64,000 nucleotides of DNA from an uncultured Candidatus Saccharibacteria bacterium (GTDB taxonomy: Bacteria > Patescibacteriota > Minisyncoccia > Phycocordibacterales > UBA5272). The notes under the pieces are model-generated. The model saw nothing but the letters and a program-made list of their open reading frames with translations. It was not told the origin of the DNA and ran no database searches. The DNA lies in the NCBI GenBank assembly GCA_964635125.1, contig CAZWMQ010000001.1, positions 211,272 to 275,271 on the forward strand. The letters run 5' to 3'. Below, piece by piece: positions 5,479 to 46,057 of the stretch. Both the position numbers and the translations under genes were made by a program. Within the stretch, counting starts at the first letter, position 1. Each line of letters begins with the position of its first letter.

Positions 5479-6432
5479 ATGACTTATAGAGATGAAGATT
5501 TTAAAAATAATGATAAGACAAAATACACTTATCCTGCATATGAAGACCTCTTAAAAAAAGAAGTGGAGGCTAATTTGCTATTGTCTGATGAAGAAATGAA
5601 AGAAATAGCCGAAGAAGAAATTAAAAATATAAATATTCAAAAAGAAAATCTTTGGCAAGAAATGAGCGCAATTCTTGATAAGGATAAAGAGGAAGAAGAA
5701 AAACCTAAAGCCTTAATCTTAGAAATTGCTTCTGGAGCTGGAGGAGATGAATCATCACTTTTTGCCGCCGAGCTTGCGCTTATGTATCAAAATTTTGCTT
5801 TAAAAAATAAATGTAGCTTTGAAAAATTAGATGAATCAATCTCGGATGTTGGTGGATATAAAGATGTATCTTTTGAGATTAAAGGAGTAAGAGCTTGGGA
5901 TATATTTAAATATGAAATGGGTGTACATCGTGTGCAACGTGTGCCAGATACAGAGAAGAATGGCCGAGTGCATACTTCAACAGTGACAGTAGCCGTCATG
6001 CCAATTCGAAAAATAAAAAAGATAACTATTAATCCAGCAGATATTGAAATGGAGACATCACGAAGTGGTGGCGCAGGCGGACAAAATGTAAATAAAGTTG
6101 AAACGGCTGTTCGAATTATTCATAAGCCCACAGGGATTGCTGTTAAATGTACAGTCGAAAGAAGCCAGTTAAAGAATCGGGAAAAAGCGATGGAAATGTT
6201 ACAAGCCAGACTTGAGCAGATTGAAGAAGAAAAATTTGCTCAAGAAAACTCTGACAATAAAAGAGATCAAGTTGGAACTGGCGATAGGAGTGAGAAGATT
6301 AGGACTTATAATTATCCGCAAGATAGGATTACCGATCACCGAATTAAAGAATCTTGGCACAATTTGCCTAAAATCATGTCTGGCGAAATGGGGGAAATAG
6401 TTGAAGCCCTTCAAAATTATAAAGGTGAATGA
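5479..6432 (+). CDS. prfA: peptide chain release factor 1
   Basis: GGQ motif ([17 protein letters not shown]) and an RF1-type PxT tripeptide context (RVPDTE). Confidence 0.85.
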
Positions 6433-6525
6433 GGAAGTGAGGAGGAGGAATAATTATCAAATTTCTTATTTTTAGAGAAAATTATTTTCTTAACATTCAA
6501 TTCAGAAATTTGTTATAATAGAATT

Positions 6526-10930: not shown

Positions 10931-11091
10931 TTTTTATATATTTAATTGGTTAATAGAGACTTCAGTTCTAAAAACTCTATTAACCAATTAAAAGGAGTTA
11001 AAGAACAATAATTTTCATATATTATCATAATATATTAAGGTTGTCAAGCAAAAAGTCTTTATTTTATATGTTAAATTTAAATTATAATTAT

Positions 11092-12168
11092 ATGAAAAAT
11101 GTAGCTATTAATGGTTTTGGAAGAATTGGGCGAGCTTATTTAAAATTAGTCTTGAGTGATAAAGTGGTAGAAGAGAATTTAAATATTGTGGCAATTAATG
11201 ATCTGGGTGATTTAGATAATTTAATTTATCTTTTAAAGTATGACACAGTTTATCGTCGTGATATTTTTAAAAGCATATCTAGTAGAGTGGTGAGTGATAA
11301 TGAGAAATATTTAGTAATTGAATTTATTGATAATAGTAAAAAAGAAATTCGATATATTTCGGAGAAAGATACTAGTAAATTTATTCAAAATAAGATCTGA
11401 GGTAATTTAGGAGTAGATATTGTAGTGGAGTCTACTGGATTATTTATTAGTGCGGATAAAGCTTATTTTCATATTGAAGCTGGGGCTAAGAGAGTGGTAA
11501 TCACTGCTCCTACGAAAGATTTAAAAGATGCGAAGCGAGTAGCCGACACAGTCTTAATGGGAGTTAATGAAGAATATTTAAAGAAAAATATAATCACTAG
11601 TAATGCTTCTTGTACCACTAACTCTATTTCTCCGGTAGTGGCTATTTTAGATGAGACTTTAGGAATTGAGAAAGCAGTTCTTAATACAGTTCATTCTTAT
11701 ACTGCTTCGCAAAAAATTGTCGACGGTCCAGATAATAAGAATTGACGATTAGGTAGAGCTGGAGCTCAGAACATAATTCCTTCAACCACTGGGGCGGCAA
11801 TTGCTTTAACTAAAGCCTTTCCTAAATTAGATAGTTTATTTGACGGTATTTCAATCCGAGTTCCAACTGTAGCTGGAAGTATTGCTGATCTTACTTTTGT
11901 TGCCAAAAGAGACACCACAGTTGAAGAAGTTAATCGTATTTTAAAAAATGCTTCCCAAACTGAGAAGTGAAAGAAATTATTAGCCGTGACCGATGAACAA
12001 TTAGTTTCTTCAGATATTTTAGGATTAAGATTTGCTAGTATTGTGGACTCCTTAAACACTAAAGTAGTCGGTGGAAATCTAGTAAAGGTTTTAGCTTGAT
12101 ATGATAATGAGATAGGATACACTAATACTTTAGTAGAGCATACGATGAAAGTAGCAAAAATAATTTAA
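11092..12168 (+). CDS. gap: glyceraldehyde-3-phosphate dehydrogenase
   Basis: NGFGRIGR and SNASCTTN. Four in-frame TGA codons at conserved Trp positions (KIWGNLGVD, DNKNWRLGRAGAQNIIPSTTGAA, VLAWYDNEIGY). Confidence 0.9.
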
Positions 12169-15600: not shown

Positions 15601-15635
15601 AATTAATCTAATTGTGTTATATTTCCATAATTATT

Positions 15636-17093
15636 ATGAGTGATTTTGATTTTAAAATTATTAAAAAATCTATTGAAGCTCCGCTTGCTAGAGTCGGAAT
15701 TATTCACACTCCACATGGAGATATTGAGACTCCAGCTTTTATTCCAGTTGGAACTAAAGCTACCATTAAAAGTATCTTGATTGAGGATTTTGAAAAATAT
15801 GTTGGAGCGGAAGCTCTGCTATCTAATACATATCATCTTTATCTTGAGCCAGGCGAAGAGATTGTTAAGTCTCAAGGCGGATTCGCTAAAATGATGAATT
15901 ATAATGGGCCAACTTTTACAGATTCGGGAGGGTTTCAAGTATTCTCACTCGGTGCGGCGATGGGAGTTGGAGTATCGAAAATATCTAAAAGAGAGGATTT
16001 AACTAATGAGAATATCGAAAAGAATTTGGAAAATAAAAATAATAAATTTAAGAATTTTATTTTAAAAAATAAATATTTATTTTTAGAATTATTAATCTCT
16101 CTAATGGTTGGGTTTATAGTAAGGGCCAATAGTGTAGATATGAATTTACTTTTAAATAGTGTGATTATGATTACTATTTTCTTAATAATTGATAATTTAT
16201 TTTTCAAAAAGTATCGCTTAAAAGATAAATTATTATTTAAAGAGTTAGAAAATAAAGCAAAATCTCTAGTAAAGATAACCGAGAATGGAGTCGAGTTTCG
16301 AAGTGTTTTTGATGGGTCGAAACATTTCTTTACTCCTGAGAAGTCAATGGAGATTCAACATGATCTTGGTGGAGATATATTTTTCGCTTTTGATGAATGT
16401 ACTTCACCCTTAGCAAATTATGATTATCAAGTGGAAGCTTTAAATAGAACTCATCGTTGAGCGAAGCGGTCTTTAAAAAGGCATCTGGAATTAGGGAAAA
16501 GTACAGCTACTGGAGAAAATCAAGCTCTCTATGCCGTAGTTCAAGGTGGAAAGTTTGACGAGCTTCGTAAAGAAAGTGCCAAAGTCTTAAGTGAAATGCA
16601 AGTTGCTGGAGTAGGGTTTGCTGGATTTGGAATTGGCGGGAGTTTTACGAAAAAAGATATGGCAAAAACCGTTAAGATTGCTACTGAAAATCTTCCAGAA
16701 GATAAACCAAGGCATCTTTTAGGAATTGGAGAAATCGAGGATTTATTTTTAGGTATTGAATATGGAATTGATACTTTTGATTGTGTCACTCCAACTCGGA
16801 TCGCTAGGAATGGTACCATCTATACCAAGAATGGAAAAATTAATTTATTTAATGCTAAATACAAAAAGGATTATAGCCCAATTTGTGATGATGAAAGTTG
16901 TTATACTCATCAATACACTAAGAGTTATTTAGCACATTTATTTCGCTCGCATGAAATGATTGCCTCAACCATTGCCTCAATTCATAATTTACATTTTATT
17001 GTGCATTTAGTGAAAGATATTCGGCAAAGCATATTAGAAGATAGATTTTTAGAATTTAAAAAAGAATATCTTAAGAATTATAAAAACAATTAA
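15636..17093 (+). CDS. tgt: queuine tRNA-ribosyltransferase with a ~105-aa internal insertion
   Basis: PVGT, TDSGGFQVFSL, EKSMEIQHDLGGDI, FDEC and RTHRW(TGA at 16458-16460)AKRS. Asp/Zn region VTPTRIARNG...C..C.C..H. Confidence 0.85.
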
Positions 17094-17170: not shown

Positions 17171-17560
17171 ATGAAAAGATTATTTTTTTATTGTACCCAA
17201 TCCACAAATTGTTTCGAAACAATTTTTGATTACGAAAAAGCTAAATTAGAAATTTATTTCAGTGGTACCCCTAAAGTTAATAATATATTAACTTTAGAAT
17301 CTGAAGCAGCAGCTATTGCTGCCAGGCAGTACTTAAAGTGTCAAAATTTTAAGTATATGAAAAGTCTAAATTGCCTTGATTTCGGGAATTTAGAGATTCT
17401 ACTTTCAGAAAAATCTTATGTAAAATCTTTAATTTTTCTTTCTAAAAATTTATTGCCCCAAAAATTTTTAAGAAGAGAGCGGATTTATGTTTCTGGTTAT
17501 AAAGATTTGATATTGTGGAAAATTCTTTCTAATAGAAATTTAAATTTCAATTTAGTTTAA
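17171..17560 (+). CDS. hypothetical protein
   Basis: 129-aa ORF. No recognised motif. Confidence 0.35.
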   Translation: MKRLFFYCTQSTNCFETIFDYEKAKLEIYFSGTPKVNNILTLESEAAAIAARQYLKCQNFKYMKSLNCLDFGNLEILLSEKSYVKSLIFLSKNLLPQKFLRRERIYVSGYKDLILWKILSNRNLNFNLV

Positions 17561-28816: not shown

Positions 28817-31735
28817 ATGACTAAGATAAATTATCAAGCTATAGAAAGCAAATGGCGAAAATATTGGGAAAGTATTAATCTAAATCAGACTAAGACCAGT
28901 TTCAAAAATGGTGAAAAGAAATTTTATATTCTAGATATGTTTCCATATCCATCTGGAGAAGGATTACATGTTGGACATCCTAAGGGTTATATTGCCACTG
29001 ACATATATTCTCGATATATGAAGATGAATAATTATAATGTTTTACATCCGATGGGATTTGATGCCTTTGGATTACCGGCTGAACAATATGCCATTAAACA
29101 TAAATTAAACCCTAAAATAGCTACCGAAAAGAATATTCAAAGATATAAAGAACAATTAGATATGCTCGGGCTAGATTATGATTGGGAGCGAGAGGTTAAT
29201 ACTACTGATCCTAATTTCTATAAATGAACACAATGAATGTTTAAGCAAATGTATAAAGTTGGCCTTACCTATCAATCTAATGAACCAATTAATTGATGTC
29301 CAAGTTGTCAGACCGGGTTAGCTAATGAAGATCTAGATGGTAATGTCTGTGAGCGATGTGGAAGTATAGTTGAGAAAAGACCACTTCGTCAATGGGTAAT
29401 TAGGATTATCGATTACGCCGATCGTTTATTAGATGATCTTGATAAATTAAATTGAGAACCACATATTAAAGAATTACAGAGAAATTGAATTGGCAAAAGT
29501 ATTGGGAGTGAGATAGAGTTTCAGATTGTGAGAGCTAATATATTTGGTTTTGATATAAGAACTAATTATGACACTGATGAAGAGTTATTTAAGACTGGTA
29601 GGAAAAGATCAGTAGCTATTATTAGAATTAAAGATACAGATAAATTTTTAGGATTTATTAAAAGAGACGATAGAGATATTCATTTAGCTGGTGGTGGAAT
29701 TGAGAAAGGAGAAAATTCTAGAGAAGCCGCTGAAAGAGAGGCTTTTGAAGAAATGGGAATTAAAAATCTCAATCATTTAGGAAGCCTCGGCTCATTTCGT
29801 GGTTTCGAGTATTACGAATTATTTGAGGTGGAAGAAAATTATAAAAAAAATTTATCAGGTTCATCAGAATTGGAAAGAGATGAAAATTCTTTTATTGAGT
29901 TTACAAAAGAAGATATATTAAAAAATAATTGGCAACAAGTTTCTTATGTTTTTAATAATTTAGACTCTTTGTTTAATAATAGTGTTTTAGAAAATAAATT
30001 AAAAATCTTCACAACTAGAGCCGATACTTTGTACGGGGCGACTTTTATGGCTATATCATATTCCTTAGCTAAACAATGGATTAAAGAAGGTTGAGTTCCT
30101 AGCGAGGAGATTAGAAAGTTTATTGAAAAATTAGAGAATGATGAGAAAGGTAGATCAGTAGAGTTTGATATGAATAAATTAGAAAAAGAAGGAATTGATA
30201 CGGGAATTAAGGCCATTAATCCAGTAAATAATGAAGAGATTCCAATTTATATTGCTAATTATATATTAAGTGATTATGGAACTGGAGCAATTATGGCTGT
30301 GCCAGCTCATGATGAGCGAGATTATGAATTTGCAAAGAAATATGGTTTAGAAATTAAAAAAATCATTCTTGGTGAGCATGATGAAGAGAATCAATTATTT
30401 ACTGGGCATGGAATATTAATTAATTCAGGAGAATTTGATGGAATGAATAGTGAAGAAGTTAAAATAAAAATTACCGAGAAAGTTCACGGAAAGATTGTCT
30501 CTCAATATAAATTAAAAGATTGAGTATTTGCTCGTCAACGATATTGGGGAGAACCATTTCCAATTGTTTTTGATGAAAATAATCAGAGTTTCGCGGTGGC
30601 TGATACTGAATTACCAATTAAATTACCAGAGATAGAAAATTATGAACCCTCTGGAGATGGACAATCGCCATTAGCTAAGATTAAAGATTGAGTAGAAGTG
30701 TATGGGTTTATAAATAGCGAAGGAGAGTTTGAGAGTTTAGAGAAAGATAATCCTAAAGCTAAAAAGTTTTACCGCGAAACCAACACTATGCCACAATGAG
30801 CTGGATCTAGTTGATATTATTTAAGATATATTGATCCAAATAATCAAGAGAGATTTGTAGGTAAAGAATTAGAAAAGGTTTGAGATCCGGTGGATTTCTA
30901 TGTGGGTGGAGCTGAGCATGCTACAAGGCATTTAATCTATGCCAGATTCTGGCATAAGTTCTTATTTGATCAAGGATTGGTCGAATATGATGAGCCGTTT
31001 TTAAAATTACAAACGGTAGGCTTAATAATGGCCGAAGATGGACGAAAGATGAGTAAGAGATATGGCAATGTAGTTAATCCAGATGAGGTGGTTAAAGAAT
31101 ATGGAGCTGATACTATGCGAGCTTATGAGATGTTCATGGGGCCATTTGAGAAATCTACTGCTTGAAGCACGAAAAATATCTTAGGAGTATATAGATTCTT
31201 AGAGAGAGTTTATGATTTATCTTTAAAGTTAAAAAATAATTATGGAAGCGATAATAGAGAAGTTGAAAGAGTAATTAACGAAAGTGTTGAGAAAGTTGGT
31301 AATGATATATTAGAGTTCAAGTTTAATACAGCTATCTCACAGTTGATGATCTGTTTAAATACTCTAGAAGATAATTTGAAAAAAGGAGAGAGTTTTTCTA
31401 AAGAAAGTTTAGGGAAGTTTATAAAGATACTTTCACCATTTGCGATATTTATTACCGAAGAGATTTGGCAAGAAGTATTAGGAAATCAAACTTCAATTCA
31501 TCAAGAATCTTGGCCAAAATTTGATAAAAATAAAACCATAGTAGAGGAGATAGAATTATCAATTCAAATTAATGGAAAGTTTAGAGGAACAATTAAAGTT
31601 AAAGTTAATTTAGATAAAGAGGAAGCAATGAAAGAAATTAAATCAACAGAAATCTTTAAGAAATATGTGGAAGATGAGAATAAGATTAAAAATATTATCC
31701 TAGTGAAAAATCGTTTAATTAATATCATTATTTAA
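28817..31735 (+). CDS. leuS: leucyl-tRNA synthetase carrying an internal Nudix-box insertion
   Basis: HIGH motif (HVGHPKGY) and KMSKR(Y). 12 in-frame TGA codons, all at conserved Trp positions ([43 protein letters not shown]...). The reading frame is continuous across track ORFs 28817, 29528, 30170, 30890 and 31343. Confidence 0.9.
29534..30001 (+). other. ~150-aa Nudix-hydrolase-like domain inserted within LeuRS, just before the CP1 editing domain
   Basis: It lies between [16 protein letters not shown] and [15 protein letters not shown] (the CP1 start). It carries a perfect Nudix box GX5EX7REUXEEXGU = [23 protein letters not shown], preceded by an IHLAGGG loop. Confidence 0.7.
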
Positions 31736-32987: not shown

Positions 32988-34520
32988 ATGGAAAGTATTC
33001 AATTAATTATTGATATTGGGTTATTTTTAATATATTGTGCAGTATTTACTTTACTTTTGGCTTGGACTTGGAAGTTTTGAATGCTTTATGTAAATACTGA
33101 GTATATGAAATCTTTGAAATATTCATTATTAGAAATTAAATTACCTCGGGAGATTAATAAAAGTCCTGAAGCAGCGGAAATATTTTTACGAGCGGTTTAT
33201 GATGGAGGAGGACTTGGTCCATGGATAAAAGAGCAATGAAAAGGGGCCATGCCAGCGGTGACGGCTCTTGAGATAGTTTCTTTAGAAGGAGTGATACATT
33301 TTTATTTAAGATGTGAATCAAAGTTTAAACCAAGAGTTGAAGCCGCTATCTATTCACAATATCCGAATGTGGAAATAATTGAAGTTGAAGATTATGTTAA
33401 TTTGTTGCCAAAGATTGATAGGCATAATAAAGATGGGCATGGATTCTGAGGTAGTGATTGGAAATTATCTAAAACAGGTGGAATTGATGAATATGGTGAT
33501 GATAAAGAAAAGAAATTAGTGAAATTAGAATATGCTGGAGATATGTATCCTATAAAGACCTATAAAGATTGAGGATTAGATAAAGACCCTAAAGAAATGC
33601 ATAAGCACGACCCTTTAACTTATTTGCTTGAGCAATTTGGCTCAATTGGTGAAGGTGAATATTTCTGCCATCAAATCCTAATTCGTGATGCGGGTAAATG
33701 GAGTGATATTTATACTATTGAGAAAGACAAGAAAAAGGAAAGTGGAAAGAAATTGTCAGATTTAGTAAAGTTAGAAATAGATAAATATAAGAAGAAATGG
33801 TCTTTAAAGAAAAAAGGAGATAAGGAAAAAGATGAATGAGGTAATTATAAAGGTAAAACTATTAAAGATGCTGATGGAAATGAAAAAACAATTCCTTATG
33901 AATATACTGAAGATATTTTGACACCCAAAGCTATTCCACCGAACGAAAGAGAGGCAGATGCTAAAGAGAATTTAGAATTAATACAGAGAAAGATGGGTAA
34001 GCCACAAGTGATCGCTAAGATGAGGACTATTTATGTAAATAATGGTAAGACTGAAGCTAATATGGGTAGCCGTATTGCTATGTTAGGAGGAATTTTAAGA
34101 AGTTTCAATGAGGATGCTTTTAATACTATAGGTCCTGATATGTCAACTTTTCCAGATCCATTTGATTATCCATGGCAAGATCCGTATAAACATTATTCTG
34201 GGTGAAGAAAAGAGAATCTTTTCAATGCTTATATTTCTCGTGGGGGAATGTTCTCTTTGTCTGGGGGAATGGGGAAAGGATCTAAGAAGTTCTTAGATAA
34301 TGCTATGTTCAACACTCCTAATTATATTCGTAAAATATATACTGATATTTCAAATATATTATTTCATCCATTTTTACCAACTCGAAATAAATATGGCTAT
34401 ATCCTAAACTTAGAAGAATTAGCTACCCTTTATCATTTTCCAGGTGAAGTGGCGGCAACTCCTACTTTACCGAGAATTGATTCTACAAAGTCATCACAAC
34501 CATTTAATATTCCAACTTAA
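32988..34520 (+). CDS. Trp-rich membrane-anchored hypothetical protein (510 aa)
   Basis: ATG at 32988 with an N-terminal TM helix. Six in-frame TGA-Trp codons join track ORFs 33249, 33597, 33918 and 34248 in one frame. Confidence 0.5.
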
Positions 34521-39154: not shown

Positions 39155-42100
39155 ATGTCTAAGAGTAAGAACATTAATCAGAGTCTTTTAGTTGCTAATC
39201 TGCCTAAAAAGACTTTTTCTAATTTTAGAAAACCTTTCATTGAATTGCCAAATTTAGTTGAGAATCAATTAGCTTCTTTTAAAAAATTAATCGACGAGGA
39301 TTTAGGTTTAATTTTAAAAGAATTAAACCCTATTAAAGATTATACAGAAAAGAAATTTGAGTTAGAGATAACTTCCTTTGAATTAGCTGAACCTAAGATA
39401 ACTGAAGAAGAAGCTAAAAATAATAAATTAACTTATGAAACTCCATTAAGAGCTAGAATTTTATTAAAGAATAAAATATTAGGAACCGAAAAAGAGCAAG
39501 AAATTTTTTTAGCATCATTTCCCTTAATGACCGTTCACGGCTCATTTATTATTAATGGAGTGGAAAGAGTCATTATCCCACAATTAGCTCGTAGTGCCGG
39601 AGAATTTTTTAGTTTTGAAGAAATTAAAGGTAAAAAATATTTTGCCGCAAAAATTGTTCCTAATCGAGGGGCTTGGCTTGAAATTATAACTTCTGACGAT
39701 AATGAAATGTTTGTAAAAATTGATAAGAAAAGAAAGTTTTCAGTAGTTTCTTTTTTGCGAGCTATTGGATATGTAACAGATAAACAGATCTCCGAAGCTT
39801 TTAAAGAAATACCACTAGTCCATACTTATATTATGTCTTTAGTTGATAAAGATCCAATTAAAGTTGCCGAAGAAGCTTATATTGATATTTATAAAAAATT
39901 ACGAGATGGAGATTTGGCCTCAGCTGATAATGCTAAAGCTTATATTTCTTCTTTATTTACTAAAGAGAGATATGATTTATCGCCGATTGGAAGATTAAGA
40001 TTTAATAAGAGATTTGATTTATCTTTAGATAAGAAAGAGATGGCAAGATTAACTTTATCAAAAGAAGATATTGTTTTAATTATTAATCATTTAATTAAAT
40101 TAAATAACGATCCTGAAGCTGAGGCCGACGATATTGATCATTTAGCATCTAGAAGAGTTAGATTTGTGGGAGAAATGTTAGGTATGAAAGTTAAGAAAGG
40201 AATGCTACAAGTTAAAAGATATATACAAGAGAAGATGTCAGTGATTGATACTGATACAACTTTACCAGTAACAATTATTAACCAGAGACCTCTACAAGCT
40301 CGAATTAAAGAATTCTTTACCGTAAACCAATTATCTCAACTTATGAATCAGGAAAATCTTTTAGCAGAAATCGAAACTTTAAGAACCGTATCGGCACTTG
40401 GGCCAGGAGGAGTCTCTAAAGATAGAGCTGGGTTTGAAGTTCGCGATGTTCACACTTCTCATTATGGAAGAGTTTGTCCAATTCAAACTCCAGACGGAGC
40501 AAATGTCGGTTTAATTTTAAGATTATCGGCTTATGCTAAGATTAATGAGTTTGGTATTTTAGAAACTCCATATGTAAAAGTTGAAAAGGGAAAAATTACA
40601 AAAGAAATAGAATATTTAAATGCTTTACAAGAAGAGAATACAGTTATTGCACAAGCAGCTATTAATTATGATGAGAATGGAGTAATTAAGGATGAGTTAG
40701 TCCAAGCTCGTCGTGGTGCAAACCCAGCTATTGTTCATAAGAGTGAAGTTAGATATATTGATGTAGCTCCTAATCAGGCATATTCTATTGCTACTAATAT
40801 GATTCCATTTTTGGAACATGATGATGCAGCAAGAGCAAGTATGGGATCTAATATGCAAAGACAAGCTGTACCGTTAATTTTAGCTGAAGCTCCATATGTA
40901 GCTACTGGTATGGAAGAAGCAGCTTCAAAATATATAGGTAGATTAGTTTTAGCTGAAGAGGCAGGTGTGGTCAAGTATTTAGATGCAAATAAAATAATCA
41001 TAACTGATAATAAAAATAAAGATAAGACTTATAATTTAACGACTTTTTCTAGGACTAATAGTTTTACAGTATTTTATCAAAAACCAATTATTAATATTGG
41101 AGATAAAGTAAAAAAAGGCGAAGTTTTAGCCGACTCTTCATCATCTAATGGTGGTCAAATTGCTATCGGTCATAATATTAGAGTAGCTTTTATGAGTTGG
41201 AATGGAGCAAATTATGAAGATGCTATTATAATTTCTGAAAAATTAGTTAGACAAAAGAAATTCTCTTCTATACATATCGAAGAATTTATTTGTAATGTTC
41301 GTGATACTAAGTTAGGTGATGAAATCACTACTCACGATATTCCTAATGTTGGTGAAGCTAAGCTTAAAAATCTAGATGAGGATGGTATCATTCGTATAGG
41401 AGCGGATGTTAGAGCGGGAGATATATTAGTAGGTAAGATTACACCAAAAGGAGAAACTGAATTAACACCGGAGGAGAGATTGTTAAGAAGTATTTTCGGA
41501 GAAAAGATTAGAGATGTCAAAGACACTTCTTTACGATTAGATAATGGGAAAAGAGGTAGAGTTATAGGAATTAAAGTCTTTTCAAGAGATAGAGGCGATG
41601 TCTTAGATAGCGGAGTTATTAAAAGAATTCATATTGAGGTGGCTCAATTAAGAGATATTCAAGTTGGAGATAAATTGGCTGGACGACACGGTAATAAGGG
41701 TGTTATTTCAAGAATTTTACCTGAAGAGGAGATGCCATTTACTGCCGATGGTGAACCGATTGATATTATTTTAACCCCATTAGGAATTCCATCTCGAATG
41801 AATATCGGACAGATTTTAGAGATGCATTTAGGTTTAGCAGCTAAAACTTTAGATTATCAAGCTATTACTCCAGTTTTCGGTGGAGCTACTGATGATGAGA
41901 TTAAGGATGAATTAGAAGCTGCAGGATATGATAGAAGTGGAACAGTAGATCTTTACGATGGTAGAACTGGAGAAAAATTTGCTGATAAGATTGCGATTGG
42001 AATCATGTATATTCTTAAATTACATCATATGGTAGAAGATAAATTACATGCTAGAAGCATTGGTCCATATTCATTGATCACTCAACAACCATTAGGAGGA

Positions 42101-42421
42101 AAATCTCAAAATGGAGGCCAGAGATTTGGAGAAATGGAAGTCTGAGCACTTGAAGGTTATGGAGCAGCGCATACCTTAAGAGAGATGTTAACTATTAAAA
42201 GTGACGATATTGTTGGTCGAACAGATACTTACAATAGTATTATTAAAGGAGAACAGATTAAGAAGCCAAATGTCCCCGCCTCTTTAAATGTTTTATTAAA
42301 TACTTTACGAGGATTATCTTTAGATATAATTCCACTAATTAAAGATAATAAAAGAAATAAATTCAACAAAGAAGAGATTTATTTACAAGAAGATTTAATA
42401 GAATTAAAAGAAAATTTATAA
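39155..42421 (+). CDS. rpoB: DNA-directed RNA polymerase beta subunit
   Basis: Conserved blocks throughout. In-frame TGA at 42143-42145 is the universal Trp of [22 protein letters not shown] stop at 42419-42421. Confidence 0.95.
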
Positions 42422-42451: not shown

Positions 42452-45400
42452 ATGAAAACTTTAGATACAACTAATTTCGATGCTCTACAAATAAAAATAG
42501 CTTCTCCCGAAGTAATTCGAGCTTGAAGTTTTGGTGAAGTTACTAAACCTGAAACTATAAATTATCGAACTGGGCGAAGCGAGAGAGCTGGGCTTTTCGA
42601 TGAGAAAATATTTGGTCCAGAAAAAGATTATGAATGTTATTGTGGTAAATATAGAAGAATTCGTTATAAAGATATTATCTGTGAGAAATGTGGTGTCCAA
42701 GTTACTAAATCAATCGTCCGAAGAGAAAGAATGGGTCATATTGAATTAGCTACTCCAGTTGCTCACATTTGGTTTTTAAGAAATATTCCTTCTAAGATAG
42801 CTTTAGTCTTAGGCGAAGCATCTGGACAGGTTGAGAAAGTTATTTATTTTGCTAATTATATTATCACTAGAGTTAATTTAGCGGAAAAAGAATTATTATT
42901 AAAAGATTTAGATAGTGAATTTAAAGCAAAAATTAAATCCGCTACTGATGATAAGACTAAAGAAAAATTAAAAGAATTATTCCAAGCAACTAAGAGAGAA
43001 ATCGATGAGATTAGACCGAATAAAATTTTAGATGAAGTTCTTTATCATAGATATGCTATGCGATATAGTTCGGCTTTTGAAGCTAGTATTGGACCGGAAG
43101 CAATTTATAATATTTTTAAAGAGATTAATTTAGATGAATTAGAAGCTTCTATTTTAAAAAGTTTAGAGAAGATTTCTTCATTAGATAGGTCTAAGCAAGA
43201 AAAAAGACTTTCATTAATTAGAGCTTTTAAAGTTTCAGAGATTAGACCAGAGTGGATGTTTCTAACCGCATTACCTGTAATTCCACCAGGAATTAGACCA
43301 ATGGTTACTTTAGAAGGAGGCAGATATGCCACCTCAGATGTAAACGATCTTTATCGAAGAGTAATTAATCGTAATAATCGTCTTTTGAAATTAAAAGAAA
43401 TTAATGCTCCAGATGTTATCTTAAGAAATGAAAAAAGAATTCTTCAAGAAGCGGTAGATGCTTTATTTGATAATTCTATGCGTAGAGGACAAGGGGCAAC
43501 TACTATTATTGGGCAAAGAAGACAATTAAAATCTTTAGCAGATAGTATAAAATCCAAATCCGGTCTATTTCGTCAAAATCTTTTAGGAAAGAGAGTTGAT
43601 TATTCTGGGCGAAGTGTAATTGTTATTGGACCAGATTTAGCCCTTGATGAGTGTGGATTACCTAAATATATGACTTTAGAGTTGTTTAAGCCTTTTGTAA
43701 TTTCTAAATTATTAGAGCGAGAATTTACTTTTAATATTCGAGGAGCTAATAAATTAATCGAAGATGGAATTCCAGAAGTTTGGGAAATCTTAGAAGAAGT
43801 AATTGAAGGTAAATATGTATTACTTAATCGAGCTCCGACTTTACACAGACTAGGTATTCAAGCTTTCAGACCTAAAATGATAGAAGGAAATGCAATTCAA
43901 CTTCATCCATTAGTATGTACAGCTTTCAATGCTGACTTTGATGGAGATCAGATGGCGGTGCATTTACCATTAGGTGAGGAAGCTCAGAATGAGGCTAAAA
44001 ATATTATGGCTTCGAATAAAAATTTATTAAAGCCAGGTTCTGGGGATTCAATTGTCAATCCAAGAATGGATATGTTACTTGGTTGTTTTTGGCTGACCAC
44101 TGAAGTTGAAGGATTAAAAGGAGAAGGAAAATATTTCGGTTCTCCAAATGAGGCAATCACAGCTAGTGAATTTGATTTAGTAGATATTAGAGCCAAGATA
44201 CAAGTAGTGCCATCTTCAAAAGAGAAGTATGCTAGGTTTAATGGAGAAAGATTTCAAACTACAGTCGGAAAACTTCTATTCAATTCAATTTTCCCAGATG
44301 ATTTTGAGTATATTAATGAGCAAGTTGGTATTAATTATATGAATAAGATTGTCGATCGTATAATTAATCAATATGGTTTTGAAAAAGCTCCAAAAATAAT
44401 TGATAAGATCAAATCTTTTGGTTTTAAATATGCTACTATTTCTGGAACAACTTGGGGAATTAATGCCGTTAGAGTTCCAAAAGACAAGAAAGAAATTGTT
44501 GACAGAGCTAAAAAAGAAGAAGAAAAGATAGTTGAATATTATGAACAAGGATTATTATCTGAAGAAGAAAGATACACTAAGGTAGTTGAAAATTGGTTAA
44601 AAACTAGAAAAGAAATTGAAGGCATCATGCCAACTGAATCTATAGATAAATATGGCTCAGTGTATAACTTAGTCACTTCTGGTGCCAGAGGATCTATGAA
44701 GCAATTAATACAAATTGGAGGAATGAAAGGTATCATTGTTAATTCCTCAGGAAAGAATATTGATTTTCCAGTAATTTCTTCCAATATAGAAGGACTTTCT
44801 CCAATTGAATATTTTATTACAACTTATGGAGCTCGTAAAGGAACATCTGATACCGCTTTAAAGACTGCTGAAGCTGGGTATTTAACTCGAAGATTGGTTG
44901 ATGTGGCTCAAGATATTATTATCACTGAAGCAGATTGCGGAACAAAGAAAACTGAATTAATGACTGCTGAGAATGTAATGGGTATTGAAATTCCATTAAT
45001 AAAAAATATTAGAGGCCGGGTCTTAGCTCAAGATTTAATTGGTAAAGATGGTAAAGTCTTATTCAAGAAGGGTTCTTTAATCAAGAAGACTGATCTTAAG
45101 AAGATTGAAGAAGCAGAGATTAAAGAAGCTCATATATATTCACCATTAACTTGTGAATCATTGTTTGGAGTTTGTCAGAAATGTTACGGAGAAGATTTAG
45201 CTCGTAATGAATTAATTAAAATTGGTGAGGCGGTTGGAGTAATTGCTGCTCAAGCGATCGGAGAACCTGGGACACAATTAACTATGAGGACTTTTCACTC
45301 TGGAGGTGTGGCTGGAGCTGATATTACTCAAGGGCTTCCAAGAGTAGCTGAAATCTTTGAGCGAAGAAATCCTAAGAATCCAGGAGTTATTTCATTATCG

Positions 45401-46057
45401 AATGGAGAAGTAGTAGAAGTCAAGAAAGATAAGAAAGATAAGAAGATTGTAGTAATGAGTGATGATGATGGATCTTATGATCAAGCTAAGAAAAAAGGTA
45501 TGAAAATAGAATATGAGATGTCATATTTTAGAAGAGCGATTGTTAAAGTCGGAGATAAAATTAAGAAAGGTCAAGCTTTAACGGACGGATCATTAAATAT
45601 TGAAGAATTATATGATTTAGCTGGTAAAGAAGTTTCTGAGAAGTATATTGTTAATGAATTAAATAAAGTTTATGAACTTCAAGGAGCATCTATTTCTCGA
45701 AAGCACATGGAATTAATTATTAAGAGAATGTTATCTCGTATTAAGATTAAAGATGTCGGAGATACTAACTTTACCCAAGGTGATATTGTTGAGATTGCTG
45801 ATTTTAAGATTGAGAATGAGAGAGTTAAAGCTGAAGATAAAAATATAGCCAAAGGAATAAATTTAATTTTAGGAATTTCAGATGTTGCTTTAACCACTAA
45901 TTCTTGGTTATCGTCAGCTTCATTCCAGCATACAACAAGAGTTTTAATAAACTCATCAACTCGAGGACAAATTGACAATTTGCGAGGTATAAAGGAGAAT
46001 GTAATTATTGGTAAATTAATCCCAGCCGGAACAGGGGTGAAAAATAAAGAGGAATAA
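42452..46057 (+). CDS. rpoC: DNA-directed RNA polymerase beta' subunit
   Basis: ATG at 42452. TGA at 42524-42526 is the conserved Trp of IRAWSFGEV. Zinc finger CYCGKY...CEKCGV, and NADFDGD. Confidence 0.95.

Follow-up and report, generated by a model that had tools for sequence, protein, structure and literature searches.

A clade-restricted hydrophobic hairpin in a surface loop of a Patescibacteria tRNA-guanosine(34) transglycosylase, a possible membrane tether

Introduction

Canonical bacterial Tgt is represented by the enzymes of E. coli, Z. mobilis and T. maritima (TIGR00430, PF01702). The Tgt encoded in the 64-kb window, by which we mean the whole stretch of DNA analysed here, belongs to the same family, adopts the same fold and possesses the same catalytic aspartates (Asp96, Asp253 and Asp369); it differs in having 106 residues between FQVFSLG and KITE where each of the three canonical enzymes has about 3, a pocket motif GGSFTKxD in place of GGLAVGE, and a zinc motif C-x4-C-x2-H...H in place of CxCxxC...H. 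Ordinary CPR Tgts (404-425 aa, with a loop insert of 31-45 aa) share with the window enzyme the insertion point, the altered pocket motif, and both the start (xA[ML/F]GxGVSKIA) and the end (K[LM][AV]xI) of the insert, but their inserts carry a net charge of -2 to +2 and contain neither hydrophobic helices nor Lys-rich linkers. A literature search returned no description of the basic CPR Tgt insert, of Tgt insertions, or of queuosine in CPR.

Three further systems invite comparison. M13 procoat-type anchors are N-in/C-in hairpins inserted by YidC, and offer a functional analogy only: the window insert is predicted to have the same two hydrophobic helices, short neutral or acidic loop and basic flanks, yet its hairpin lies in the middle of a TIM-barrel enzyme rather than in a small membrane protein, and its first helix is short. 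For the eukaryotic Tgt homologue QTRT1/QTRT2, an association with the mitochondrial outer membrane has been reported, and this would set a precedent for a Tgt localised to a membrane; at the loop in question QTRT1 lacks a TM hairpin, and in phmmer it aligns like the bacterial enzymes. Finally, inteins also form in-frame insertions near the active site of housekeeping enzymes, but the window insert has neither their junction residues nor a family match and, at 106 aa, is smaller than a mini-intein. The earlier note's rejection of an intein was thus well founded: Ala107 follows Gly106, so that a Cys, Ser or Thr is lacking at the N-terminal junction, the insert ends in Ser-Leu-Val followed by Lys rather than in His-Asn, and neither the whole protein nor the insert matches an NCBIfam intein. 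An intron or RNA element was likewise rejected, given the absence of Rfam matches and the presence of coding constraint.

Results and Discussion

Reading frame and identity of tgt

The window protein scores 431.8 bits against TIGR00430 (equivalog cutoff 306.75) in a single stretch covering residues 10-483, and phmmer against solved structures retrieves Tgt entries of the PDB at E values of about 1e-84. The earlier note had argued from the intact catalytic motifs that the gene is not a pseudogene. The motifs are indeed intact, D96 (TDSGG), D253 (FDEC) and D369 (GIGEIED) being invariant across 60 aligned homologues; by alignment, they correspond to D102 (TDSGG), D156 (FDEC) and the nucleophile D280 (GxGxPxD) of Z. 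mobilis. The conclusion drawn from them holds solely under a code in which TGA specifies Trp; an in-frame TGA (Table 1) had been overlooked. Because the genome reads TGA as Trp (table 4), tgt is intact as one open reading frame; a table-11 listing breaks it into 15612-16460 and 16596-17093, and standard-code gene callers split it into products of 274 and 165 aa (P0047), so that public data annotate it wrongly, as two fragments. Within the window, TGA occupies canonical Trp positions in LeuRS (12 sites), RpoB (GEMEVWALE), RpoC, GAPDH (WYDNE) and TopA as well as at W275 of Tgt. The tRNAs in the window comprise tRNA-Tyr and tRNA-Leu only. [quoted passage not shown]

The pocket motif takes the form GGSFTKKD in the window enzyme, and GGSFTKxD is invariant across the CPR Tgts compared, and the zinc-site motif reads C417-x4-C422-x2-H425...H434. 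These sequence changes suggest that the substrate of CPR Tgt may differ from preQ1. An AF2 model of P0001, a relative 82% identical to the window Tgt, supports a (beta/alpha)8 barrel with a C-terminal subdomain (mean pLDDT 85), and its core superimposes on Z. mobilis TGT with a TM score of 0.93-0.94, normalised to the target. At the zinc site, some CPR relatives lack Cys altogether, for instance P0079 (SDDESWYTH).

Position, layers and composition of the insert

The insert, A107-V212, comprises 106 in-frame residues (15954-16271) that are free of stops in any genetic code; the segment is coding and not frameshifted. In phmmer comparisons with solved structures, query residues 17-105/106 and 209/212-483 align, and across the gap the chain numbering passes from 110 to 113 in 2ash (T. 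maritima) and from 100 to 103 in 10fb (E. coli), which leaves about 103-106 residues of the window Tgt without a structural counterpart. The size (about 105 aa against about 3) and position given in the earlier note are hence correct, but its notion of a single insertion into a canonical enzyme is not, since an alignment of 120 homologues resolves three layers: a loop insert of 31-45 aa found in all sampled Patescibacteria Tgts, approximately 35 residues of clade-specific, Lys-rich linkers, and a hairpin of 44 residues (Table 1). In the window Tgt, about 24 residues at the start of the insert and about 3 at its end, where it rejoins the enzyme at SLVKI, are the parts that derive from the shared loop insert. 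The same alignment shows the loop to be hypervariable in length, at 31-115 aa. We are highly confident that the insert is real, coding, layered, clade-restricted and prone to indels.

Table 1. Features of tgt and of its insert in the 64-kb window
Feature	Position	Strand	Remarks
tgt, tRNA guanosine(34) transglycosylase	15636..17093	+	485 codons + TAA, TGA read as Trp
N-terminal part of insert, A107-N130 (AAMGVGVSKISKREDLTNENIEKN)	15954..16025	+	from 120-homologue alignment
Linker 1, L131-K146, Lys/Asn-rich, low complexity	16026..16073	+	GC 0.06
Hydrophobic helix 1, Y147-R163	16074..16124	+	invariant E151, R163; near-invariant G159
Turn A164-N170, motif [ST/G]-x-D-[ML]-N	16125..16145	+	net charge 0 to -1 including R163; AF2 loop 166-170
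Internal imperfect direct repeat AATAGTGTAGATATGA / AATAGTGTGATTATGA (NSVDM / NSVIM)	16128..16170	+	copies 27 nt apart
Hydrophobic helix 2, L171-F190	16146..16205	+	N174, M178, F182, I185, D/E186 and LFF conserved
Linker 2, K191-K209, Lys-rich, opening with conserved KKYR	16206..16262	+	first 12 residues net +5
Rejoining segment SLVKITENGVEF	16263..16298	+	S210-V212 close the insert; KITExGVxF is the canonical Tgt beta-hairpin
In-frame TGA, Trp275 in RTHR-W-AKRS	16458..16460	+	column Trp-invariant in 60 homologues

The first residues of the insert (xA[ML/F]GxGVSKIA) are present in every sampled Patescibacteria Tgt, and the remainder of A107-N130 is conserved within the clade; AF2 assigns this part a pLDDT of just 41-55. 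The dN/dS ratios, which are approximate because dS is near saturation, amount to 0.03-0.05 for A107-N130 and 0.08-0.41 for the hairpin, whereas the enzyme core has 0.05-0.13 and the linkers reach about 1 (0.13-0.67 for linker 1 and 0.19-1.3 for linker 2). The codons of the insert had been described as very AT-rich, and its GC content is 0.22 compared to 0.35 in the rest of tgt. The internal direct repeat in the DNA of the turn and the start of helix 2 suggests growth through local duplication or slippage.

Properties of the hairpin

The two TM-helix-like stretches reported in the earlier note are readily recovered. Kyte-Doolittle means over 19 residues reach 1.72 (from F149) and 2.17 (from L171), while the maximum outside the hairpin is 1.42 and that of E. 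coli Tgt is 1.11; across the 11 proteins scored, the corresponding values are 1.7-2.7 for helix 1 and 1.6-2.4 for helix 2. Sums on the Hessa scale range from -0.3 to +4.8, the window helix 1 being marginal at +4.8 kcal/mol. This helix is short, with 16 hydrophobic positions of which just 11 lie between E151 and R163, and helix 2 counts 20 residues. In 14 sequences, the Eisenberg mean hydrophobicity is 0.82-1.03 for helix 1 and 0.62-0.92 for helix 2, with hydrophobic moments of 0.03-0.20 and 0.02-0.16, respectively. Both helices thus combine high hydrophobicity with a very low moment, i.e., they are non-amphipathic, and therefore cannot be solvent-exposed. In all eight genes examined, the flanks carry a charge of +3 to +6 (the last 12 residues of linker 1 contribute net +4 in the window) and the turn one of 0 to -1, which fits the positive-inside rule for an N-in/C-in topology with both halves of the enzyme in the cytoplasm. 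The AF2 model of P0001 contains helices at 146-165 (pLDDT 74-81) and 171-199 (pLDDT 82), joined to the barrel by segments of low confidence (pLDDT 41-69).

Among the 14 hairpin-bearing orthologues, E151, R163, D168, L172, F182, I185 and L188-F189-F190 are invariant, and M169, N170 and N174 are conserved in 12. Judging from this alignment, a conserved acidic residue in each helix together with the invariant or nearly invariant R163, D168, N170 and N174 makes a more specific pattern than that of a generic greasy anchor. Tgt is the sole otherwise soluble enzyme in the 64-kb window to possess an internal TM-like segment, and no widespread TM insertions in soluble enzymes were seen there.

Distribution, gain and loss

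The hairpin of 44 residues is present in the window Tgt and in about 14 relatives, in a clade labelled Paceibacteria or Nomurabacteria in public records, and persists across genes whose cores are 76-93% identical. The earlier note had named beforehand, as an observation that would count against its proposal, related orthologues in which the segment is a loop without hydrophobic helices. Many close orthologues indeed have such a loop (insert of 50-73 aa), and 14 carry the hairpin. Core identity between some of those lacking it and hairpin-bearing enzymes reaches 95.6-98.7%, so that the hairpin is a dispensable addition, and its repeated loss in near-identical relatives shows any benefit to be small or conditional.

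These hairpin-less sisters (P0010, P0012, P0013-P0029 and P0033; 433-455 aa), with up to 98.7% core identity and the same linkers, lack 35-50 residues, among them helix 1 and the greater part of helix 2, yet retain remnants of the helix ends, FFSIDIFFFKKYR and LLNSLFSFFKK. The clearest event separates L081 from L005, which are 94.7% identical at the nucleotide level and differ by a single in-frame indel of 105 nt bounded by TTTCTCTTCATAGAAATT and TTTTTCTTTATAGATATT. Another close pair, P0005 and P0033, has been remodelled by several indels.

A possible membrane tether and its alternatives

Our best explanation, which we consider to stand about an even chance of being correct as a whole, is that the segment is a translated, lineage-specific elaboration of a hypervariable Tgt surface loop between FQVFSLG and KITExGV, with the hairpin acting as a membrane tether. 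In one AT-rich clade, this loop acquired Lys-rich low-complexity linkers, and in a subset of the clade the 44-residue helix-turn-helix as well. The two helices, hydrophobic all round, would enter the cytoplasmic membrane as an N-in/C-in hairpin, with the neutral-to-acidic turn outside and the Lys/Arg-rich flanks inside, and flexible linkers, about 40 and 20 residues long, would keep the intact catalytic barrel close to the inner membrane face. Actual membrane insertion, taken by itself, is in our estimation similarly balanced between being right and wrong. Replication slippage or duplication, acting on repetitive AT-rich DNA, probably underlies both the origin and the loss of the hairpin. Where present, the hairpin is under purifying selection, yet it is dispensable, given its absence from very close relatives. 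Organisms of this kind are thought to depend on 7-deazaguanine salvage, and a conceivable benefit is the placing of Tgt beside an importer of the scarce 7-deazaguanine base; such a coupling of Tgt to base salvage is speculative and, at best, unlikely.

The most serious rival, which we hold to be somewhat unlikely, is that AT bias and slippage produced a Phe/Ile/Leu-rich loop without any role, a tolerated by-product of composition whose apparent constraint reflects selection against toxic variants. The low GC content of the insert, and of linker 1 in particular, is in keeping with this, as are the indel-prone direct repeats, the hypervariable loop length and the repeated loss of the hairpin between close relatives. 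Moreover, random stop-free sequences of 106 codons with the base composition of the insert yield at least one TM-like window in 34% of cases and at least two in 4.9%, so that in this AT-rich genome the mere presence of hydrophobic stretches is not very improbable. What exceeds chance is the recurrence of one homologous hairpin with many invariant positions in 14 orthologues of substantial core divergence. The dN/dS ratio of the hairpin is, in addition, near that of the core and below that of the adjacent linkers, and to leave two fully hydrophobic helices exposed would be costly.

A more far-reaching version of membrane attachment would make Tgt an integral membrane enzyme, in which the intramembrane residues E151, R163, N174 and D186 dock the base importer and salvaged 7-deazaguanine is handed over directly. 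We regard this as improbable. If true, it would be, to our knowledge, the first membrane-integrated bacterial tRNA-modifying enzyme, and would present the traceable birth of a TM hairpin from an AT-rich loop, with natural deletion alleles as controls.

The hairpin might instead be a soluble packing module, the two copies in a homodimer forming a buried four-helix bundle or packing on the barrel, so as to stabilise the dimer or shape tRNA binding. Bacterial Tgt acts as a homodimer, as established for Z. mobilis TGT, AF2 predicts a confident helical hairpin, and there are conserved polar or small residues within the helices (E151, G159, R163, N174 and D186). Yet helices that are hydrophobic all round (moment 0.02-0.20) would leave a greasy surface exposed even in a bundle, the flanking charges obey the positive-inside rule, the linkers are variable and of low model confidence, and the periodicity of conservation, which would appear as an i/i+4 stripe at a helix-helix interface, is not significant (p = 0.15-0.25). 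We judge this possibility to be decidedly improbable.

Exchange of the hairpin as a mobile in-frame cassette, moving between or into tgt genes, would account for its patchy distribution on the core tree. It would also fit the finding that hairpin identity does not follow that of the core (Mantel r = 0.08, p = 0.31), a low-power test that lends no support to strictly vertical inheritance. An imperfect direct repeat of 18 nt borders the 105-nt indel and might be taken for a target duplication, but it codes for homologous ends of the two helices, FLFIEI and FFFIDI, which is what a slippage deletion predicts. Outside tgt, neither the 64-kb window nor some 86 related loci contain a second copy of the hairpin as peptide or as DNA, inverted repeats are of the AT-rich, low-complexity kind with no convincing terminal pair, and Rfam gave no matches. 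A word-indexed search with the insert alone, which has low sensitivity for a short hydrophobic query, was likewise without matches. An exhaustive phmmer search with the hairpin over 1.84 billion representatives retrieved only P0121, a TGA-truncated Tgt fragment, a count that is not a measure of prevalence, since each 50% cluster is represented by a single sequence and ordinary CPR Tgts hide the full-length hairpin-bearing ones. A mobile cassette is consequently very improbable.

An assembly artefact or decaying pseudogene, to which the standard-code stop at 16458-16460 and the split public gene calls might point, can practically be dismissed, as the two independent Logan assemblies SRR11845633 and SRR11845619 are identical to the window across tgt, including the insert and the TGA (three identical assemblies, which settles the misassembly raised in the earlier note), TGA is read as Trp across the window, the core is under constraint (see the dN/dS ratios above), and the in-frame insert is conserved in 14 orthologues.

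Significance

The locus encodes an unusual variant of a known enzyme and not a new system. If the hairpin is a true anchor, an insertion of 44 residues turns a soluble, universally conserved tRNA-modifying enzyme into a membrane-tethered one, and natural sister alleles that either have or lack the hairpin, and are otherwise 95-99% identical, make its effect directly testable. If it is tolerated junk, the finding is a curiosity. The locus also documents how TM-like helices can be made and deleted inside essential enzymes in the AT-biased, slippage-prone loops of reduced genomes.

For the hairpin-less relatives, a retained amphipathic helix that binds the membrane was considered. Their remaining stretch is cationic (charge +4 to +6) and moderately amphipathic, but its moment of 0.4-0.6 does not exceed the 0.5-0.8 of core helices, and tRNA binding is an equally possible role for such a segment.

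The tgt gene and its genetic code

Score (431.8 bits on the equivalog profile TIGR00430, whose cutoff is 306.75), fold and catalytic residues place the window protein in the queuine tRNA-ribosyltransferase (Tgt) family. In the table-11 ORF list its gene appears as two ORFs in the same frame, split by a TGA where RTHR-W-AKRS has its Trp, which is invariant in 60 homologues. In-frame TGA codons occur in about half of the window's long ORFs and fall on textbook Trp positions in TopA, LeuRS (WTQW, NWCP, QRNWIG, MPQWAGSxWYYLRY), RpoB (GEMEVWALE), RpoC (IRxWSFGEV) and GAPDH (WYDNE). Hence, TGA means Trp in this genome (table 4) and tgt is a single intact gene, in agreement with the first report of UGA-to-Trp recoding in the patescibacterial class Minisyncoccia (gTranslate preprint, May 2026). 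Two near relatives (loci L004 and L007) use the standard code, since their tgt genes end with TGA. Public standard-code gene calls for an identical sequence (locus L083) divide tgt into 274-aa (P0047) and 165-aa products, and a sister Tgt, P0121, ends prematurely at the same TGA in the public records; any table-11 annotation of the source MAG will hold many such split genes. The window's RF1-type release-factor gene has a GGQ motif, RVPDTE at the PxT position and an acidic tail with a TGA codon. No RF2-like gene was seen in the 64-kb window, which is consistent with table 4 and uninformative at that scale.

Coordinates of features in the window
Feature	Position	Strand	Remark
RF1-type gene	5479-6453	+
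gap	11068-12168		TGA at Trp
tgt	15636-17093	+	485 aa, TGA = Trp
Table-11 ORFs of tgt	15612-16460; 16596-17093
Loop insert A107-V212	15954-16271
Conserved first part of insert	15954-16025
TGA splitting tgt	16458-16460
preQ1-pocket motif	16635-16658		GGSFTKKD
Zinc-site motif	16884-16937		CDDESCYTH...AH
ORF in tgt-uvrB slot	17171-17560	+	129 aa, no Pfam match
LeuRS gene	28817-31735	+	972 aa, 12 TGA at Trp
LeuRS NUDIX insert	~29600-29824
510-aa protein gene	32988-34520	+	six TGA (Trp) codons
rpoB	39155-42421		TGA at Trp
rpoC	42452-46057		TGA at Trp

A layered loop insert

Alignments to solved Tgt structures omit query residues 107-211, where T. maritima passes from 110 to 113 and E. coli from 100 to 103. 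The earlier note had described an in-frame insertion of about 105 residues at this point, with two TM-like stretches and AT-rich codons, and the description holds: the insert measures 106 residues, its GC content is 0.22 against 0.35 in the remaining gene, and its two hydrophobic stretches have Kyte-Doolittle 19-residue means of 1.72 and 2.17. It is not a misassembly, since two assemblies built independently from other runs match the window at every base across tgt, and an artefact or pseudogene is exceedingly improbable; the note's denial of a pseudogene stands for the intact 485-aa gene, provided that TGA is read as Trp, the standard code splitting it. An intein, likewise denied there, is ruled out by wrong junction residues, an absent domain match and insufficient length, and an intron or RNA element by the lack of an Rfam match and the presence of coding constraint.

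An alignment of 120 homologues revealed three layers. The first is an insert of 31-45 aa, present at the same point in all sampled Patescibacteria (CPR) Tgts, with xA[ML/F]GxGVSKIA(T/K) as its start and K[LM][AV]xI as the rejoining motif. The second is a Lys-rich low-complexity addition (insert 50-73 aa, net charge +5 to +13) in one AT-rich clade, whose MAGs are labelled Paceibacteria, Nomurabacteria, Elulimicrobiales or 'Saccharibacteria'. The third consists of two hydrophobic helices (insert 99-115 aa), carried by the window protein, the homologues P0001-P0009 and P0011, the fragment P0121 and the loci L001-L004, L014 and L030, which in several cases encode the same proteins.

The conserved first part of the insert, whose homologous region was covered in CPR loci L001-L080, shows a dN/dS of 0.03-0.05 in the window's clade, and despite this strong constraint its AF2 pLDDT is 41-55; perhaps it folds conditionally, for example as a contact for tRNA or a partner. 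We found no literature on it.

Unlike the fold and catalytic residues, the zinc and preQ1-pocket motifs differ from canonical Tgt in the window protein and all its CPR relatives. The pocket motif GGLAVGE is replaced by GGSFTKKD in the window protein (GGSFTKxD is invariant among these CPR Tgts), and the zinc site CxCxxC...H has degenerated, to C-x4-C-x2-H...H in the window protein and with no Cys at all in relatives such as P0079. These motifs suggest that the CPR group as a whole uses another base as substrate and may have a subdomain that lacks zinc.

Properties and possible role of the hairpin

The AF2 model was made on P0001, which is 82% identical to the window protein with equal numbering through the hairpin. 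Its barrel is confident (mean pLDDT 85; TM 0.93-0.94 to Z. mobilis TGT), and two helices are modelled in the insert (146-165 and 171-199, pLDDT 74-82), with a five-residue loop between them and low-confidence linkers outside. In 14 orthologues both helices have a mean hydrophobicity of 0.62-1.03 (Eisenberg scale) and a hydrophobic moment of 0.02-0.20; being hydrophobic on every side, they cannot be solvent-exposed. The 12 residues on each side of the hairpin carry a charge of +3 to +6, and the turn (R-x-x-[ST/G]-x-D-[ML]-N) a net charge of 0 to -1, in 8/8 genes examined. Under the positive-inside rule, such charges are expected of an N-in/C-in hairpin, the sole topology that keeps both barrel halves cytoplasmic.

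We give about an even chance to the reading that the hairpin enters the cytoplasmic membrane in this N-in/C-in orientation and thereby tethers Tgt. As a caveat, helix 1 has just 16 hydrophobic positions, with a Hessa-scale sum of +4.8 kcal/mol in the window, and the sums of both helices in relatives range from -0.3 to +4.6. M13 procoat-type hairpins with a short acidic loop are typically inserted by YidC, and by analogy YidC might mediate insertion here. More speculatively, the tether might hold Tgt close to a base importer. Eukaryotic QTRT1/2 has been reported to be membrane-associated at mitochondria, a possible precedent. We found neither the CPR loop insert nor a Tgt with a hydrophobic hairpin described in the literature.

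That the hairpin is instead a tolerated by-product of composition is the next most probable reading. Random stop-free sequence of the insert's composition gives one or more TM-like windows in 34% of trials, and two or more in 4.9%. The dN/dS of the hairpin (0.08-0.41) is near that of the core (0.05-0.13) and lower than that of the adjacent linkers (0.13-1.3), figures that are rough because dS is near saturation. Positions E151, R163, D168, L172, F182, I185 and L188-F189-F190 are invariant, and G159, M169, N170, N174, M178 and D/E186 nearly so; the many polar residues among them suggest an element more specific than a generic anchor. It is unlikely that the helices form a soluble bundle or a packing module in the homodimer. 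An amphipathic membrane-binding helix was considered for the corresponding segment of hairpin-less relatives, which proved cationic and not unusually amphipathic. There was no sign in the window of a genome-wide habit of TM insertions: apart from Tgt, none of its soluble enzymes has a TM-like segment in its interior.

Distribution and origin

In a core-only tree, proteins with and without the hairpin are interleaved, robustly so in two cases: the core of P0004 is 98.7% identical to hairpin-less P0028 compared with 90.5% to the nearest carrier, and that of P0005 is 95.6% identical to hairpin-less P0033 compared with 88.0%. The hairpin is real, translated, constrained, clade-restricted and dispensable, and the Tgt around it, in which it occupies a long flexible loop, is otherwise intact. 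The tgt genes of L081 (encoding P0004) and L005 are 94.7% identical in DNA, and a single clean indel, 105 nt long and in frame, sets them apart. It has TTTCTCTTCATAGAAATT and TTTTTCTTTATAGATATT at its ends, repeats that encode the homologous helix ends FLFIEI / FFFIDI and are a classic sign of deletion by slippage. The P0005/P0033 pair shows several indels and one diverged stretch, and within the window's hairpin there is a direct repeat of 16 nt (NSVDM / NSVIM). We infer that the hairpin was born by local duplication in AT-rich loop sequence and was repeatedly deleted or remodelled.

An exchanged cassette is very improbable. No second copy was present in the window or in ~86 loci, there were no real terminal inverted repeats, and a search of 1.84 billion representatives returned a single match, another TGA-truncated Tgt. 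Hairpin and core identity were uncorrelated (Mantel r = 0.08, p = 0.31) in a test of low power, because of which exchange by recombination among relatives might still have occurred. Natural pairs of alleles with and without the hairpin make its role easy to test.

Neighbouring genes

Upstream of tgt lie rpiB, rpe and split transketolase N and C genes, a synteny kept in L081-L084; in L085/L086 a DUF4015 gene separates tkt-C from tgt. The tgt-uvrB slot is variable, holding DUF1653 and PGA_cap in L081 (5460-6734 of that locus) and ASCH and DUF1761 in L085/L086 (L085 2978-3817). The 510-aa protein matches no Pfam family at E <= 0.01 and has a single TM helix, at its N terminus. An inserted NUDIX hydrolase domain (PF00293, 38.2 bits against a cutoff of 21.1; residues 262-336) separates the catalytic core of LeuRS from the editing domain and has a perfect Nudix box.
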